5,179 nucleotides of DNA from Dictyostelium discoideum (lineage: Eukaryota): NCBI GenBank assembly GCA_000004695.1, contig CH709174.1, positions 1 through 5,179 on the forward strand, read 5' to 3'. Numbering within the stretch: position 1 is the stretch's first letter; each line of letters starts with the position of its first letter. The position numbers and the translations under genes are program-made. The notes beneath the pieces are model-generated. The model worked only from the letters and a program-made list of their open reading frames with translations. It was not told the DNA's origin and did no database searches. Positions 1-5,179 of the stretch are shown piece after piece.

Positions 1-163
1 TTGTCTCCTCAAAAAGCCCGAAGTAGTCGGTGGCTAACCACAGCCCAACTCACCTTTTGCTCAGGATTTACCCTAAAGGCTATTAACTTTATAACCTCAT
101 CTTTGAGTGCGATTAGCTTTCCTTTTAAACCAGCAAGCTTTCTTGGGGAGCAACAATCTAGTT

Positions 164-955
164 TTAAAAGTTTCTTATTTCCTTGATGACACTTTTCTTC
201 TTTTCTTTGGGAACAAGAAGCTTCATTGATTTTGAATCGATTTGTAATCCGAGAAATGTAATTGATTGAGTTGGTTCAAGAACAATCTTTTCTAGATTCA
301 GCTTGAAACCTAGTTTGACAAGTAAGTCCATTGTCTTTTTGAGGTTGGATAAACATTCTTCTTTTGTTGAACCGACGATTAATAGATCGTCCAAGTAAGC
401 GATTACGGACACGTTGATATCTCTCAACATTCGAAGTACATGTCTTAACAACATTGTAAAGATACGAGGAGCTGTCGATAACCCGAACGGCATTGTTTTC
501 CAACGGTAGTGCGAACCTTTCCACACGAAGCGGAATAAGTCTCTGTATTGCGGATCTACTAAAACGTGGAGGTAGGCTTTCTTGATATCGAGTTTTACCA
601 TGTAATAACCTTGTTTGACCATTGATGGTAGATTCTTGATTCCTTCCATCTTGAATGATTGGTTGTTGATGTAAGTGTTTAACCTTTTTAGATCGAGAAC
701 TGGACGATGTAGATTCGTTCCAGGTTTTGGAACCGTAAACACGTTGGAGTAAAAAACGCGCTTTGAATAACGGTTTGGAAGTACTTGTTCGATAGCATCG
801 TCTAATAACAAGTCTTGTACTTCCTTTGTGATGCAATCTGATTTCGGACCCTCTGGAATTGAAATCGGAATTGGGTTTGGCATCGGCTTGAAATTTGGAA
901 GTAAATGGATTTTTAATCCATTTACGACCTCTTGACAAAAGTTTGGAAGACCCAA
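164..955 (-). CDS. Reverse transcriptase domain of a retroelement pol ORF. RT blocks 1-7 are all present. The ORF ends at a premature stop (KEIRNF*) and the reading continues in another frame below position 164.
   Basis: The translation contains the canonical RT motifs FTVPKPGTNLHRPVLDLKRLN, KLDIKKAYLHV, MPFGLSTAPRIFT, the YXDD box VIAYLDDLLIVG, LVKLGFKLNLEK and ITFLGLQID. The frame differs from the upstream gag-like ORF, which is the usual gag/pol frameshift arrangement. Confidence 0.85.
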   Translation of the reverse strand: MGLPNFCQEVVNGLKIHLLPNFKPMPNPIPISIPEGPKSDCITKEVQDLLLDDAIEQVLPNRYSKRVFYSNVFTVPKPGTNLHRPVLDLKRLNTYINNQSFKMEGIKNLPSMVKQGYYMVKLDIKKAYLHVLVDPQYRDLFRFVWKGSHYRWKTMPFGLSTAPRIFTMLLRHVLRMLRDINVSVIAYLDDLLIVGSTKEECLSNLKKTMDLLVKLGFKLNLEKIVLEPTQSITFLGLQIDSKSMKLLVPKEKKKSVIKEIRNF

Positions 956-1005
956 TTCTTTCCAAACTTGTTTGTGGTGGAACAGACGTCCACCTACTGG
1001 TAAGT

Positions 1006-2007
1006 TTACTTCTTGTTCTTCTGAAAACGGTTGTTGGTACCGTTGGCAGACTTGGTATTGTTGCTACCTGATGCAACATTACTTGGTGACCCATTGAAGT
1101 TGTTAGATCGGCCATTACTCCCACTACTGGATTTACTATTACTACTGTTTCCTGTAGTGTTATTACCACTTGAGTTAACTGATTTCTTGACATTGGACTT
1201 GGAATGATAATTCAATTTTAAAAATGATTGTTTAGCTTCGTTGTTCTTTCTGATTGACTTGGCTAGCTTTCTTACACGTTCAGTTTCAGTTTCATCAAAC
1301 ATCTTTGGTGTATCCTTGATCTTAATTGGTAAGAGTACTTCAGAACCATAGATTTCTTTAGCGATGTTGTTACGACGGACACGACTAAGCGATGCTTGAG
1401 CATTAACGGCTAAGATGATTGCACTCTGAGTTAAGTAACTAATAAGTTCTACATCGACATTAGAGCTATCAGATGATAACATACTTGATATGAGAAGCAA
1501 AGGTTTTAAGCTATCGTTGATTCGCTTTTCGACAATCAACAAGTCAGTATCATTGTTCTTGACGTTGGATGATACAGTAATACCTTCAGGTGTACCGAAT
1601 GGAGCGACATTCACTTGGAAGTTAGATGGAAAGTTGAATACTTTATTCAATTCGGATATCTCATCTTTCTTGAGGATACATTCTTCTTCGACGAGTAAAC
1701 CTTGATTGTTAACCATATGTTTGTACTGACCAAGTAAGGTATCGGATAATTGATAATCGGTTGGAACATCGACATTGTTACTTGATTCATCTTCACTTTG
1801 TTCATTCTCGGTGTCAGAGTTATCATGAGAAGGTTGGCTACGTGAATTAGATGAGAACATAGGTTCTTTCATGAATCTTGTAAAGGCTAAGGAAAGGTTG
1901 TTGATTTGATCCTCCATTGATTTCATTCTTAAATCAAAGGATTCAGAACTATTAAAGGCAGAGGTACTACTACTAGAGGCTTCATTATTATTAACAGTGG
2001 TAGACAT
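1006..2007 (-). CDS. Gag-like ORF1 of the retroelement. It has no CCHC zinc knuckle and ends in an Asn/Ser/Gly-rich low-complexity tail.
   Basis: A 333-aa ORF lies immediately 5' of the RT on the same strand, in a different frame. Its C-terminus is basic and low-complexity (NSSGNNTTGNSSNSKSSSGSNGRSNNFNGSPSNVASGSNNTKSANG...RFQKNKK). This composition is typical of dictyostelid proteins, and the absence of a CCHC motif is consistent with a DIRS-type Gag. Confidence 0.6.
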   Translation of the reverse strand: MSTTVNNNEASSSSTSAFNSSESFDLRMKSMEDQINNLSLAFTRFMKEPMFSSNSRSQPSHDNSDTENEQSEDESSNNVDVPTDYQLSDTLLGQYKHMVNNQGLLVEEECILKKDEISELNKVFNFPSNFQVNVAPFGTPEGITVSSNVKNNDTDLLIVEKRINDSLKPLLLISSMLSSDSSNVDVELISYLTQSAIILAVNAQASLSRVRRNNIAKEIYGSEVLLPIKIKDTPKMFDETETERVRKLAKSIRKNNEAKQSFLKLNYHSKSNVKKSVNSSGNNTTGNSSNSKSSSGSNGRSNNFNGSPSNVASGSNNTKSANGTNNRFQKNKK

Positions 2008-2088
2008 ATGTTGATATCTAAAATTATAATATGAGAAAAATAATAATATTAAAAATTAATAAAGAGAAATAATTATTTGTATAAAATT

Positions 2089-2099
2089 TGTGTGTGTGT
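2089..2099. repeat. (TG)5 microsatellite
   Basis: The run tgtgtgtgtgt is seen directly in the sequence. Confidence 0.9.
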
Positions 2100-2220
2100 A
2101 TCTTAAATATTTATAGGAGGAATTCCCAAATAAAATAAATCAAATTGTTTTAGTTTTTAGTGCCACTATTTATACGTTTTATTTTCTTAAAAATTTCGCA
2201 AAACTCAAAAAAATAAGTGT

Positions 2221-2326
2221 TTTCGACCCTTCACAACTTTGTGCATTGTGTCGGTTCGGAATTTTTATTTTTTTCGACCTTGCACAATTATCGCGTCATT
2301 GTACCGGTTCGAAATTTTTACTTTTC
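2221..2326. repeat. Two tandem, imperfect ~52-bp repeats within the putative terminal-repeat region
   Basis: tttcgacccttcacaactttgtgcattgtgtcggttcggaatttttattttt is followed by tttcgaccttgcacaattatcgcgtcattgtaccggttcgaaatttttacttttc, with roughly 80% identity. A third partial start, tttcgaaaa, follows at 2326. Confidence 0.8.
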
Positions 2327-2348
2327 TTTCGAAAATTTTTTATTCTTC

Positions 2349-2366
2349 GAATGTTCTAGAACATTC
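2349..2366. promoter_or_regulatory. Perfect 18-bp palindrome gaatgttctagaacattc, which is four contiguous alternating nGAAn/nTTCn pentamers (a heat-shock-element consensus array)
   Basis: Read in 5-bp units, cGAAt gTTCt aGAAc aTTCt gives four consecutive perfect pentamers. The site lies ~340 bp upstream of the retroelement ORF1 start on the minus strand. Confidence 0.7.
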
Positions 2367-2389
2367 TAAAAAATTATCTTAAATATTTG
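2349..2389. repeat. Left copy of a 41-bp inverted repeat (IR-L)
   Basis: gaatgttctagaacattctaaaaaattatcttaaatatttg matches the reverse complement of 4403-4443 at 39 of 41 positions. Confidence 0.9.
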
Positions 2390-2587
2390 GGAAATTCAAA
2401 TAAATAAATGTTATTCATAATATATATATATATGATAATATAAATTCATAATCTGAAGCCATTACAACCCATTATTGATGAACTTTCTAAGAAGCACTAC
2501 AGTAAGTAGTTCTTTTTGACAAAGGTCTTCGATAATATGAAATACCAAGGGATTTTTCTAGGTTCGTTTAATTAAAGAGGACCTATC

Positions 2588-2692
2588 ATGCAAAACACCA
2601 ACGCGGAAAAACTTCAACAAGAAGTATATCAGCATTCGAATATTAATTCATGCGACCCACCAAACTTACTAAATAGACTCCGGCTTCCTTGA
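2588..2692 (+). CDS. Small 34-aa ORF (MQNTNAEKLQQEVYQHSNINSCDPPNLLNRLRLP) preceded by a strong Shine-Dalgarno-like motif. Function unknown.
   Basis: AAAGAGGA at 2574-2581 lies 6 nt upstream of the ATG at 2588. The ORF sits upstream of the ATP-grasp-like ORF. It is too short to appear in the ORF track. Confidence 0.3.
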   Translation: MQNTNAEKLQQEVYQHSNINSCDPPNLLNRLRLP

Positions 2693-2809
2693 GTCGTTTA
2701 GCCAGCGTGATTGATTATATCCGTCAATACGAAGCAAAAACCGTTGCGTAACTATTTGGTCAGAGTGGGAAAACAGCTCTGACTTTATGCCAGCCTATGG
2801 AGTAAAGTC

Positions 2810-3298
2810 ATGAAAATCATTGTACAAGCACATGGCACAAACGTATACCATCGGGAAGAACAAAAAGTCCATGATTATGTTAAAGACTTTATTCCGTTGG
2901 GTTTATCGCAGCTAAAAAAGAAAACTGATCTCATTGAATCCGCCGTTTGGTTATGTGAGGTCGTGGAGTGGGGTAGCGAATGGCAGTTCTACTTACAGGA
3001 TGATGTAGTTGTCTACAAGGCACCGTATAAAGGAGCCACAAAACCAGACATCCGTATTGTAGATGACATGATACAGAGGCTCCAGTACTGTTCTACTGGA
3101 CCTAATACCTACGCTTTAGATGTAGATGTACTAAGTTCAGGTAAAACTGCATTAATAGAAATGAATGATGCATTTGCTGTCAGCGCCGAGACATTCCCGC
3201 AGACATCTATACTGAATGGTTATTCTCTCGCTGGAATTCGTAAATGGCGTAATCCAGGAGTTTTCAGGTCTACATCATCAAGGTGTAGATGTGAATAA
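2810..3298 (+). CDS. ATP-grasp fold protein (C-terminal catalytic-domain-like), 162 aa. It may be a truncated or short ATP-grasp ligase.
   Basis: The segment YALDVDVLSSGKTALIEMNDAFAVSAE resembles the conserved ATP-grasp C-terminal motif (..GVDxx...G...vlEvN..P..), and it is preceded by an E..R-containing beta region. GGAG lies 7 nt upstream of the ATG. The stop codon of an upstream reading frame overlaps this RBS. Codon usage is enterobacterial or phage-like. Confidence 0.55.
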   Translation: MKIIVQAHGTNVYHREEQKVHDYVKDFIPLGLSQLKKKTDLIESAVWLCEVVEWGSEWQFYLQDDVVVYKAPYKGATKPDIRIVDDMIQRLQYCSTGPNTYALDVDVLSSGKTALIEMNDAFAVSAETFPQTSILNGYSLAGIRKWRNPGVFRSTSSRCRCE

Positions 3299-3330
3299 AA
3301 CCCCCTGTAATAACTGAAAAAGGAAATACC

Positions 3331-3624
3331 ATGTCCGATGTAATCGCACAACAAAACCAACATGCTGTTCAGCAGTATCCAAATGAAATTCCATCAGGAA
3401 TTACATTGTTCATCGAGTTTGTTCATAGCGCTCTGGGAAATCTGCAAGAGAAATCCTTGCTGCCGGACCTGGTACCCACTACTCGCGGTGTAGTCGTTCG
3501 TCAGGAAAACCAAAACCCACTGAATACGTTGTCTGCGGTTGCCCCAACCGTCCTGAACATTTACGGTAACCAAAGGCCATCGCCCTGTGTGAATGCCGCA
3601 CCGCATCTGCTCTATCTGGCCTAA
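3331..3624 (+). CDS. Hypothetical protein, 97 aa. The same frame stays open through two in-frame TAA codons as far as 3930, so this may be a nonsense-interrupted pseudogene or a longer gene.
   Basis: AAGGAA lies 5 nt upstream of the ATG. Codon choice is strongly ctg/ccg/cgt/gcc. The frame continues open from 3625 to 3780 with the same codon bias after the TAA at 3622-3624. Confidence 0.45.
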   Translation: MSDVIAQQNQHAVQQYPNEIPSGITLFIEFVHSALGNLQEKSLLPDLVPTTRGVVVRQENQNPLNTLSAVAPTVLNIYGNQRPSPCVNAAPHLLYLA

Positions 3625-3852
3625 GATCTGCTGTGTACCGGTCTGATCGATGCCGAGTGTTTAGCGCTGTATAGCCCGATTCAAACCAACAACACCATCC
3701 CAATACGTTCCCGTCATGCCAAACCTGACTGGATTGTACTGCAGAGTCCAACTACGAAGAACTTATCAAAACTTATCAGGTAACTCAGGACTCTCCGTTC
3801 CGTTAAAATAACTTTATTGCAAGGATTGAAAAAGCTTGATCTTAGTTTAGTT

Positions 3853-4242
3853 ATGGCGTTAGTATTCATGGTTACTGGTTTCGCTACTGATATCACCCAG
3901 CGTGTAGGCTGTGGAATCGAACACTGGTAGTAACTATTTCTCTACAACAACTCAAGGCGAAGAAGTTGCGATCGAGTGTTTGAATAGTACAGTCGTTGCA
4001 AGTATCACTTATGCAGACGGGCGCACCCTCTAAAGGTGATCCTATTGGGGTCTACACGGAAAATGGTGTCTTTGTCTTATCTTGCAAATCGCAGTCCGTT
4101 GCAGTTCGTAAACAGTTCTGGGGATATTATCCAGTCTGCTAAAGGACAATTGCAATTTGCAAGTACCGTGGGTGAGTCCTGCGTGTATTCAGCAACCAGT
4201 CTAGGAAAGTTATTTAAAGACATTGGCTCTAACTGTAATTAA
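3853..4242 (+). pseudogene. Possible decayed gene for a small secreted, Cys-containing protein. A signal-peptide-like N-terminus is followed by short ORFs in successively +1-shifted frames.
   Basis: The sequence (L)KKLDLSLVMALVFMVTGFATD... resembles a signal peptide. Four ORF segments of ~100 nt each (ending at 3930, 4033, 4142 and 4242) run in frames 1, 2, 0 and 1 with plausible peptide sequences, for example GDPIGVYTENGVFVLSCKSQSVAVRKQFWGYYPVC. Overlapping open frames could also arise by chance at this GC content. Confidence 0.25.
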
Positions 4243-4402
4243 CCATTAAGCCGCTCCTTAATTGGGGCTGCTGTTTCACTTGAGGTTATTTTTTATGTTC
4301 TCACACATTGTGGCCATGCACCCTACCTTTATCAATTTCAGAAATCGAAGCGGTTATTGGTCAATATCGTGTTTGCGTACTGTATAACTTTGCCTCTGGT
4401 GA

Positions 4403-4443
4403 CAAATATCTAAGACAATTTTTTAGAATGTTCTAGAACATTC
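4403..4443. repeat. Right copy of the 41-bp inverted repeat (IR-R). Its outer 18 bp (4426-4443) is the same HSE palindrome.
   Basis: The reverse complement of 4403-4443 is gaatgttctagaacattctaaaaaattgtcttagatatttg, which differs from 2349-2389 at 2 positions. Confidence 0.9.
4426..4443. promoter_or_regulatory. Second copy of the perfect HSE palindrome gaatgttctagaacattc
   Basis: aGAAt gTTCt aGAAc aTTCa gives four perfect pentamers. It is identical to 2349-2366. Confidence 0.7.
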
Positions 4444-4459
4444 AAAAAACACAGCGGCT

Positions 4460-4498
4460 TTATAAGTATACTTTATAAGTACTACTTAATAAGTACAC
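4460..4498. repeat. Three tandem ~13-bp units (tttataagtatac / tttataagtactac / ttaataagtacac)
   Basis: The units are seen directly in the sequence. Confidence 0.8.
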
Positions 4499-4536
4499 TT
4501 ATTAATATATATTAATAATTAATTATTATTCTTTAA

Positions 4537-4652
4537 AATGTTTTATATGTGAATTGAACCCGCGACCTCCCTTTTCAGAAGTTCCGAGGTGGGGAATGTT
4601 TTATATGGGAATCGAACCTGCGACCTCCCTTTCCGGAAGTTCCGTTTAGAGG
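4537..4652 (-). repeat. Two tandem 58-bp units, each containing a tRNA 3'-half or B-box-like motif (GGTTCGATTCC on the minus strand). They resemble extra-B-box elements downstream of a tRNA.
   Basis: Units 4537-4594 and 4595-4652 are ~85% identical. The reverse complement of each contains GAGGTCGC(A/G)GGTTC(G/A)ATTC, which matches the T-arm/B-box consensus GGTTCGANTCC. Each unit also carries a GGAAgTTCC inverted repeat. Confidence 0.6.
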
Positions 4653-4660
4653 AAAAAAGT

Positions 4661-4728
4661 TGCATATGGGAATCGAACCCGTGACCTCTTAAATTAAGCT
4701 ATCTCTCTACCATATGAGCTAAATAAGC
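4661..4728 (-). pseudogene. tRNA-derived pseudogene or tRNA-like element. It is followed on the minus strand by T6, a Pol III terminator-like run, at 4654-4659.
   Basis: The minus-strand reading is GCTTATT TA GCTC ATATGGTA GAGA ... CTTAA T TTAAG AGGTC ACGGG TTCGATT CCCAT ATGCA. The D-arm TAGCTCATATGGTAGAG (A14, G18G19 and A21 present), the variable loop AGGTC and the T-arm are all tRNA-like. The anticodon loop is reduced to 1 nt, the acceptor stem does not pair, and the total length is ~68 nt, so this is not a functional tRNA. Confidence 0.5.
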
Positions 4729-4797
4729 TTTTATTATTTTTCAATATTAATAGCTGAAATATTAATGTAAAAAATTTAAAAAAAATAATAAAAAAAA

Positions 4798-4927
4798 TGA
4801 AACTATAAAACATAAATAAAATGATATGTTTTATTTTTTAATTTAAAGTTGTATAAATGTTTGTGAATACACTGAGAAATAATATTCAGAATATTTCTGA
4901 AACTATAAAACATAAAAAAAATGATAT
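4798..4927. repeat. Pair of 30-bp direct repeats (tgaaactataaaacataaa[t/a]aaaatgatat) at 4798-4827 and 4898-4927
   Basis: 29 of 30 positions are identical. The interval between the copies contains a 6-bp-stem inverted repeat, tcagaa tat ttctga, at 4886-4900. Confidence 0.8.
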
Positions 4928-4976
4928 ATTCAGAATAATATAAAGAATAACATAATCTTTCTAAAAAACTTATAAT

Positions 4977-4980
<4 letters not shown>

Positions 4981-5009
<29 letters not shown>

Positions 5010-5179
5010 CCCAAAATATAATGGATCCATTGGGGGTAAAAAACCATGGATTTTTTAAAAAAAATTTAAATATTTTTTGGGGGGGCGAAAAAAATTCCAA
5101 AAAAAAAAAAAAAAAAAAAAATTTTGGGATTTTTTTTTAAACACAAAAAAAAAAAAAAAATTGGGAAATTTTTTTTTTT
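4981..5179. other. Homopolymer-dominated terminal stretch (T30, A22, A16, G7 and others). It probably reflects low sequence quality or an assembly-end artefact.
   Basis: The stretch has T30 at 4981-5010, A22 at 5101-5122, short palindromes aatggatccatt and ccatgg, and no coding potential. The only ORF here, on the minus strand, is poly-Lys read from poly-T. Confidence 0.6.

Follow-up and report, generated by a model that had tools for sequence, protein, structure and literature searches.

B boxes without a productive tRNA gene lie within or next to heterochromatin at the extra-TFIIIC (ETC) sites of budding yeast and, in fission yeast, at COC sites and at the tDNA barriers that flank centromeres. 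The locus described here shares with ETC and COC sites the prerequisite at the sequence level, a consensus B box, and, being known from its sequence, is compared with them by analogy only. In Dictyostelium discoideum, external B boxes (exB) are located ~41 bp downstream of 66% of the tRNA genes, and they are told apart from the intragenic B box, whose consensus is GTCnnnnGTTCRAnYC, by the absence of the GTC signature (PMC3159450). The stringent A box of this species is TRRYNNARYNG, and the bare sequence GTTCRANNC occurs once per ~7.5 kb of its genome (PMC5391098). Loci with A and B boxes are also present in the rDNA palindrome, and targeting by TRE5-A has been shown there (PMC3159450, PMC5391098). 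DIRS-1 inserts into other DIRS copies and centromeric DIRS regions are almost devoid of TREs (PMC2665215), DIRS-1 is not targeted to tRNA genes (PMC2665215, PMC5006619), and tRNA pseudogenes in D. discoideum centromeres are the subject of a brief remark (Glockner and Heidel 2009, PMC2665215).

The window, that is, the whole stretch of DNA analysed here, is an entire unplaced ("floating") contig of 5179 bp from the D. discoideum AX4 reference. It contains on its minus strand a tRNA-like sequence (unit C), which is followed by two further units that each bear a B box (units B and A). This array resembles a D. discoideum tRNA gene with its exB (Hofmann et al. 1991; Siol et al. 2006; summarised in PMC3159450) in the spacing of the +1 G, the intragenic B box, the oligo-T run and the presence of a box 41 nt downstream, but it differs in having a decayed body, a sub-stringent A box and two downstream boxes of the GTC type instead of one, and in that no TRE or DGLT-A element is present nearby. 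With the rDNA loci (PMC3159450, PMC5391098) it has in common the A and B boxes, the +1 G, the oligo-T run, the lack of a functional tRNA and the multiplication by segmental duplication, and the B boxes of units A and B almost match the one found there (AGGGTCGCGGGTTCGATTCCCC). The rDNA boxes, however, show no other similarity to tRNA and are about 760 bp apart, whereas here tRNA ancestry is visible and the setting is one of DIRS-1. The centromeric tRNA pseudogenes are alike in their DIRS-1-rich setting, and two copies of our array on another contig are also paired; the likeness is one of setting and pairing, the available text of that source giving neither sequences nor anatomy (PMC2665215), and the contig studied here is unplaced. 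Centromeric tRNA pseudogenes as a kind of object are thus already known, and what is added here is an anatomy at the sequence level. Finally, tRNA-derived SINEs also possess a tRNA-related head with A and B boxes and are present in several copies, but the array described here has no tail, no target-site duplications, long shared flanks and a very low copy number.

The tRNA-like unit and the units downstream of it

Unit C (70 nt; 4728-4659, minus strand) was delineated by reading the sequence and by its homologues on two other contigs, L129 and L131, and is called by ARAGORN only at lowered thresholds. Together with its trailer it reads GCTTATT TA GCTC ATATGGTA GAGA G ATAGCTTAATTTAAG AGGTC ACGGG TTCGATT CCCAT ATGCAAC TTTTTT. 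The +1 G is located at 4728, seven nt ahead of the A-box position, and the D-arm or A-box-like element TAGCTCATATGGTAGAG (4705-4721, minus strand) starts at +8. The pattern of this D-arm, TAGCTCANNNGGTAGAG, occurs once in the window against 0.01 occurrences expected. Within it, the A-box-like sequence TAGCTCATATGG occupies 4721-4710 of the minus strand; its core TAGCTCATATG fits the permissive form TNNNNNANNNG, and its position and the +1 G are correct, but it departs from the stringent TRRYNNARYNG at two positions (T for R and A for Y). The variable loop AGGTC is followed by the T-arm ACGGG TTCGATT CCCAT. Motif counts and an alignment of four copies define an intragenic B box with the GTC signature, GTCACGGGTTCGATTCC (4669-4685, minus strand), in which GTCACGGGTTCGATTC at 4685-4670 agrees with the intragenic consensus GTCnnnnGTTCRAnYC.

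The arms that the earlier note had described on the minus strand are present, but the D stem and the T stem each contain one mismatch, and the acceptor strands, GCTTATT and ATGCAAC, are unpaired. Its observation of a collapsed anticodon loop is correct: 16 nt separate the D stem from the variable loop where 18 are needed, the anticodon arm being 2 nt short, and the palindrome CTTAA-T-TTAAG lies between them; AAT occupies positions 34-36 in register. Also as reported, a T6 run resembling a Pol III terminator lies directly 3' of unit C (4658-4653 on the minus strand). The signals that Pol III would read in the DNA have been retained (+1 G, A-box-like D-arm at +8, B box of the intragenic type and T-run), while unit C is unable to make a tRNA, its acceptor and anticodon stems being gone and its anticodon arm 2 nt too short. 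Promoter and terminator positions that are kept while the needs of a tRNA are lost constitute the same pattern as that of the A/B-box loci of the rDNA palindrome.

ARAGORN at default settings detected 0 tRNA genes in the window; it called the locus, with a 6-nt loop, only at 75% or less of its thresholds (ps75), a level at which AT-rich palindromes are called too. No match to the tRNA family RF00005 was obtained in the window or in the L129 copies when Rfam was searched at E ≤ 10, and the matches at that threshold consisted of tmRNA T-arm fragments and Plastid-ycf2 (17-20 bits). We take the latter to be the antisense of plastid trnI-CAU, and read the match as reflecting a generic tRNA-like shape. 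The earlier note had named the lack of a tRNA score in Infernal as an outcome that would refute its finding, and formally this is what was found for all copies, none of which scored at E ≤ 10. Derivation from a tRNA gene stands at the level of motifs, that is, by the +1 G, D-arm, variable loop, T-arm and T-run in tRNA-like spacing, and is supported further by a homologue on L129 that has the canonical length of 73 nt. Folding of the unit C RNA gave a minimum free energy of -10.3 kcal/mol, compared to a mean of -11.5 for shuffled sequences (z=+0.48), and no cloverleaf.

Unit B (4598-4652, minus strand) is a partial copy of the 3' part of the gene. Its B box, GTCGCAGGTTCGATTCC at 4624-4608, is located 41 nt past the tRNA-like end and 61 nt past the intragenic B box; thus, the tRNA-like end is at 4659 and the next GGTTCGATTCC begins at 4618. 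Unit A (4540-4597, minus strand) is a second partial 3' copy whose B box, GTCGCGGGTTCAATTCA at 4566-4550, lies 58 nt beyond that of unit B and is followed by only T4. Both units can be aligned with the gene starting at about position 27 and as far as the trailer; they are 90% alike, and unit C is 62% like both. Tandem Repeats Finder (TRF) reported a repeat at 4545-4688 (period 58, 2.4 copies, 79% matches, score 163), and repeat finding placed three in-register copies at 4537, 4595 and 4656, with spacings of 58 and 61. The 18-nt motif of variable loop plus T-arm, AGGTCRCRGGTTCRATTC, and the B-box pattern GTCNNNNGTTCRANYC both occur three times, against 0.00 and 0.01 occurrences expected, respectively, and all three B boxes fit the published intragenic consensus (3 versus 0.01 expected). 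The two tandem units of ~58 bp with a B box that had been claimed previously are thus borne out in their spacings (61 and 58), but the exact GGTTCGATTCC is found in the proximal unit only, the distal unit having the degenerate GGTTCAATTCA.

Likewise, the description of the downstream boxes as exB-like fits with respect to the distance of 41 nt, but not with respect to their type: in both downstream units GTC is present four nt before GTTC, as in intragenic boxes, and the units align with the 3' part of the gene. This signature and this homology together indicate that the downstream boxes are partial gene duplicates and not canonical exB boxes. On its downstream side the array is bordered by an AT-rich block with a 13-bp satellite (4458-4539; consensus CTTTATAAGTATA / TTATTAAGTATAC, TRF 4458-4505). 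On its upstream side is a flank, shared with one of the copies on L129, that extends over 4729-5009 (minus strand) and ends at a T31 run at 4979-5009 of the plus strand.

The surroundings of the array in the window

The contig consists, in order, of a DIRS-1 retroelement, a phage-like spacer (the cassette), a 47-nt DIRS fragment and the block holding the B-box array (4458-5009). The DIRS-1 element (91-2452, minus strand) was identified by its RT ORF, by blastn and by its ITR. The RT ORF (164-955) matches Pfam RVT_1, many D. discoideum proteins are 98% identical to it, and the loci reached via the matching DIRS proteins contain RT, RNase H and tyrosine-recombinase genes. In blastn, 98-2445/2452 of the window was 95-97% identical to several DIRS-1 copies, including that of the contig L121. 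The ITR present in the window corresponds to 2135-2452, and the true end of the element is at 2452.

The spacer (2453-4402; GC 42.5%) looks foreign and phage-like. It contains an R2K ATP-grasp ORF and Shine-Dalgarno-like sites upstream of its ORFs, and only one homologue, sited on a phage-like Logan contig, was found among 5.8 billion proteins. An ORF at 2810-3298 (162 aa) is 100% identical to the hypothetical protein DDB_G0294348 of AX4. The cassette matched nothing in nucleotide searches of phages, plasmids and E. coli genomes, and an exact-pattern scan of viral and GTDB collections with a 30-mer of the cassette gave zero matches. Exact look-ups of the window ORFs and of DDB_G0294348 in a contig index also returned no entry. 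At 4403-4449, repeat finding and blastn revealed an inverted 47-nt stretch that copies an internal part of the DIRS ITR. The 47-nt inverted repeat around the cassette was considered as the mark of a transposon and rejected: its left arm is internal to the DIRS-1 ITR that ends at 2452, and its right arm is an isolated ITR fragment. Inverted ITRs flank any spacer between two DIRS copies anyway.

DIRS-1, at 91-2452 and 4403-4449, is the only retroelement in the window, and no RT, APE or integrase coding sequence was detected in 4450-5179. The idea of a targeting feature receives no support from the neighbouring retroelement, which is DIRS-1 and inserts into other DIRS copies, not at tRNA genes. 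From its DIRS-1-rich context, the array is presumably set in centromeric DNA. No link of the array with the adjacent DIRS-1 element or with the phage-like spacer is indicated, and the cassette context in this contig calls for caution against over-reading. The last ~170 bases of the contig (5010-5179) resemble low-quality read ends and diverge from L129.

Copies in other assemblies, conservation and parent tRNA

Four copies of the module were found in three assemblies: the one in the window and, in DIRS-rich contigs, two on L129 (61.8 kb; D. discoideum, GCA_054883475.1), which was reached through a DIRS protein, and one on L131, a contig of D. cf. discoideum. Window positions 4458-5009 constitute a low-copy repeated segment that is 92-93% identical to L129. 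Thus, the left copy of L129 matches window 4595-5009 at 19811-19395 (92.1% identity) and window 4458-4534 at 19889-19813 (93.5%), and lacks exactly one unit (window 4535-4594), its B boxes being spaced by 58. In this copy the anticodon region is of canonical length, and at ps75 ARAGORN called a 73-nt tRNA-Thr(agt). The right copy of L129 is 73% identical, is inverted and adjoins the left one, so that the two form a palindrome around the 13-bp satellite TTATTAAGTATAC. The tRNA-like units of this palindrome are 415 bp apart; with one 61-bp unit added this gives 476 bp, the distance between ThrAGU-1 and ThrAGU-2 of dictyBase (BF 33501-33572 and 33977-34048), which may be intact paralogues or the counterpart of the palindrome in AX4. 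Two units lie downstream in the right copy, and the spacings of its B boxes, 61 and 58, are identical to those of the window, although the B box of its middle unit is dead (GGTTAAATTCC). The two-unit array had been considered as a recent duplication specific to AX4, and this was rejected because the 73%-identical right copy shows the 61/58 spacing too; the three-box architecture is old, as judged by this comparison, and no AX4 novelty. The L131 copy, detected with nhmmer (E=5e-12), has T6, the satellite nearby and a single downstream B box, which lies 43 nt beyond the intragenic box and lacks the GTC signature.

Homology between copies continues into the flanks on either side, for up to 280 bp upstream and for >150 bp downstream, where it takes in the satellite, and this argues for segmental duplication and not transposition. 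About 35-50 nt of the upstream flank can be aligned in the right L129 copy and in L131 as well. The AT-rich block and the satellite accompany the module in every copy, the AT-rich block being conserved three ways; satellite arrays were seen in L129 and L131 only. The array does lie beside the cassette in this contig, as the earlier note had emphasized, but 0 of the 3 other copies (two on L129, one on L131) adjoin the cassette, which shows that the adjacency is particular to this contig. Five further loci rich in DIRS and six actin loci, together ~190 kb of Dictyostelium DNA, contained no copy of the module. In total, 4 copies were present in about 340 kb of DNA that is mostly rich in DIRS, and 0 in the 127 kb of chromosome-arm DNA around the actin loci, in which no tRNA gene was present either.

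In an alignment of the four copies (A2), the block GAGGTCA[C/A]GGG[T/A]TCGATTCC and the T-run following it are nearly invariant, and a run of at least 6 Ts is found at the same place after the tRNA-like unit in 4 of 4 copies. Invariant columns make up 30 of the 38 columns of A-box, variable-loop/B-box and T-run, versus 12 of the 42 other tRNA columns (Fisher p=7e-6), in a partition that was made post hoc and for four related sequences, two of which are 92% alike. Between the window and the right L129 copy, identity is 84% in the 3' block and 55% in the 5' block (p=0.012). The L131 copy was retrieved via the conserved block itself, which introduces ascertainment bias, and the neighbouring AT-rich block is equally conserved, so that part of the pattern could be due to gene conversion. 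The copies have not maintained the stems, and there is no conserved RNA structure. In addition, the dead middle box of the right L129 copy and the degenerate distal box of the window indicate that constraint does not extend to every downstream box. The pattern of conservation leaves a role at the DNA level possible.

Ancestry from tRNA is based on motifs, spacing and a partial comparison with published family-specific primer sequences, which are themselves partial and cover 33 families (S1 Table, PMC5391098). The primer site for Thr(AGU) reads ...CTTCC CTAGTAA GGAAG AGGTC (PMC5391098). Its segment TAGTAAGGAAGAGGTC is matched at 14 of 16 positions in each L129 copy, the mismatches all being private to one copy, and units A and B retain CTTCC...GGAA, both strands of the Thr anticodon stem. 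The retention of these two strands accounts for the palindrome TTCCGGAA. When a match in any copy was counted, Thr(AGU) reached 21/24 and Ala(AGC) 20/24. At the anticodon position AAT (Ile) is found in 3 of the 4 copies and AGT in the left L129 copy. A tRNA-Ile(AAU) parent, our first reading from the in-register AAT, is weakened by this AGT, as well as by the primer sequences, which favour Thr(AGU) or Ala(AGC). On these sequence comparisons the parent was probably Thr(AGU), in which case AAT would have arisen through G-to-A decay, with Ala(AGC) as a possible parent. That the tRNA-like unit comes from a phage or an organelle was also considered and, finding no support, rejected: a scan of viral contigs with GGTTCGATTCCCATAT returned only generic phage tRNA T-arms, phage tRNAs showed no match to the unit beyond the T-arm, and patterns of the 5' half and of the unit gave 0 matches in viral and metagenome collections.

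Origin of the array and alternative explanations

Taken together, we consider it likely that the array is a relic of a nuclear tRNA gene with two tandem partial 3' copies, belonging to a small and old, segmentally duplicated family in DIRS-1-rich DNA. Each partial copy would extend from about position 27 to the trailer and carry a B box of its own. The 61-nt period would then be the sum of about 20 nt from the B box to the end of the gene and about 41 nt from there to the exB, and the array would most likely have arisen through slippage or unequal exchange, with the intragenic B box and the original exB acting as short direct repeats. The left L129 copy would later have lost one unit by a similar process. 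That the period equals the distance from the intragenic B box to the exB suggests a route by which boxes of the exB type may multiply or vanish through unequal exchange. The intragenic B box and some of the downstream boxes are probably still able to bind TFIIIC, and the unit may still yield a short transcript of ~70 nt ending at T6. Taken as found, the module is an ordinary relic.

It is conceivable, if rather doubtful, that the modules are maintained as sites of TFIIIC or Pol III assembly within the DIRS-1 arrays of Dictyostelium centromeres, where they might serve as boundary or organising elements. Selection would then keep the +1 G, the A-box position, the intragenic B box, the T-run and the 61/58-bp phasing while the RNA body decays, and parallels would be the centromeric tDNAs and COC sites of fission yeast and the A/B-box loci of Dictyostelium rDNA. 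If it were true that TFIIIC occupies the modules, these would be the first candidate TFIIIC landmarks in Dictyostelium centromeric heterochromatin.

The earlier note took the two downstream units for exB boxes, and the array for a TFIIIC-binding landmark that would target, or a boundary that would delimit, the retroelement and the cassette. The position of the first downstream box at the published 41 nt, the fit of three boxes to the consensus of TFIIIC sites, the conservation of promoter-type positions among the copies and the identity of the 61/58 spacing in a copy that is only 73% identical overall are all in agreement with this. Nevertheless we regard it as unlikely: the DIRS-1 neighbour does not target tRNA genes and TREs are nearly absent from DIRS regions, the three other copies do not adjoin the cassette, the units have the intragenic GTC signature and not the external type, and downstream boxes are decayed or lost in other copies. 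Elements that target tRNA genes (TRE5, TRE3, DGLT-A and Skipper-2) would be expected on the upstream side of the gene at ~50 or ~15 bp, or on its downstream side at ~100 bp, and no TRE, DGLT-A or Skipper-2 was recognised at these distances, as judged without their reference sequences. Moreover, the contig is an unplaced 5-kb piece with unverified junctions. A TFIIIC-binding or boundary role of the array would at this point be speculation.

The tRNA-like module might instead be part of an uncharacterised mobile or otherwise repeated element whose copies arose by transposition. Such an element would be compatible with the occurrence of at least four copies over three assemblies, each time accompanied by one and the same 13-bp satellite and close to DIRS-1, and with the poly(A)/poly(T) run that bounds the shared flank at 4979-5009; in addition, unclassified repeats that are confined to centromeres are described by Glockner and Heidel (PMC2665215). 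The homology throughout the flanks and the palindrome in L129 are, however, what segmental duplication predicts; no target-site duplications or terminal repeats were seen, an A-rich tail is absent directly after the tRNA-related head, and the other ~190 kb of Dictyostelium DNA examined are without a copy. A transposition origin is therefore improbable.

We give very little credence to the module being a functional Pol III gene of an unusual kind, either for a non-canonical tRNA or for a short non-coding RNA with a tRNA-like promoter. The positions of A box, B box and T-run are conserved while others drift, and the T-run has at least six residues in all copies, as such a gene would require; on the other hand, the A box is below consensus, the z-score of +0.48 and the loss of stems argue against an RNA structure, and the transcribed body is the least conserved part. 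The latter observation implies that any function would reside in DNA sites or in the act of transcription and not in the RNA.

Chance resemblance, or an artefact of assembly or cloning, is hardly credible, even though the contig is an unplaced 5-kb piece in which phage-like DNA lies beside DIRS fragments and 5010-5179 looks like low-quality read ends, because the motif counts are far above chance and the module recurs with the same spacings in independent long-read assemblies of other isolates, so that doubt is confined to the unverified junction on the cassette side, around 4450-4457, and the array itself is real Dictyostelium DNA.

The spacer and its junction with DIRS-1

The phage- or bacterium-like spacer present in the window (2453-4402) has a GC content of 42.5% and contains apparent Shine-Dalgarno sites ahead of its ORFs. 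For one of these, the R2K ATP-grasp ORF DDB_G0294348 (2810-3298), a search of 5.8 billion proteins yields a single homologue, which is 62% identical and located on the phage-like Logan contig L122. Compared with L122, the window copy is shorter by about 285 nt. The annotations of seven newer Dictyostelium assemblies contain no homologue. The first base of the spacer directly follows the outer end of the DIRS-1 inverted terminal repeat (ITR; 2452/2453), and this junction argues for a real DIRS-1 insertion adjoining the spacer rather than a random cloning chimera.

The spacer is flanked on either side by the arms of a 47-nt inverted repeat (2343-2389 and 4403-4449; 91% complementary). The same stretch from inside the DIRS-1 ITR makes up both arms, each of which includes the palindrome GAATGTTCTAGAACATTC, shaped like a heat-shock element. 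On the right, the arm stands alone as a fragment, with the eight bases CACAGCGG between it and a 13-bp satellite.

Bacterial-like spacers in other DIRS-rich contigs

Spacers of bacterial-like sequence, with DIRS ITR ends as their boundaries, are also present on other DIRS-rich contigs of Dictyostelium isolates, at positions 664-2338 and 18159-19572 of contig L131 and 8663-9592 of contig L130. One of them contains a cytochrome oxidase subunit I fragment displaying 88-92% amino acid identity to Burkholderiales, at a DNA identity of only ~74% and with a GC3 of 0.38, versus up to 0.97 in those bacteria; its neighbour is a COX2/cytochrome-c ORF that contains stop codons. Of the other spacers, one is an ACR_tran fragment and one a DAHP-synthase ORF. 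Because L131 and L130 also carry such spacers between DIRS ITR ends, the presence of foreign DNA inside DIRS-1 arrays may be recurrent.

Organization of the tRNA-like module

The B boxes of the tRNA-like module are phased at 61 and 58 nt in the window (4608-4685), and the same phasing is found in the right-hand module copy of L129, a DIRS-rich D. discoideum contig, despite differences at 27% of positions. Small internal indels in these two copies offset each other, leaving the spacing unchanged. The shared phasing may reflect either coincidence or a spacing constraint. In the upstream flank of the tRNA-like unit there are two occurrences, about 100 bp apart, of a direct repeat of ~35 bp (CTGAAACTATAAAACATAAA.AAAATGATAT; 4797-4832 and 4898-4932), and both are also present in the left-hand L129 copy. 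The contig end (5010-5179) is homopolymer-rich (A, T, G and C runs), with BamHI- and NcoI-like sites; L129 contains no counterpart of it past the poly-T run, and it looks like unreliable read ends.

The 13-bp satellite and the L129 palindrome

All copies of the tRNA-like module are associated with the 13-bp satellite (TTATTAAGTATAC and variants; window 4458-4505; L129 17470-17700 and 19820-19930; L131 11110-11420 and 13740-13885), and longer arrays of this satellite adjoin DIRS fragments. It was not found in the remaining Dictyostelium loci examined. The satellite also forms the centre of a palindrome in L129 (19395-20211), in which two diverged module copies (73% identical) face each other with the starts of their tRNA-like units 415 bp apart. 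The dictyBase genes ThrAGU-1 and ThrAGU-2, which are located 476 bp apart on floating contigs (S2 Table of PMC5391098), were both struck by TRE5-A(bsr) integrations. Their spacing equals the 415 bp of L129 plus one 61-bp unit.
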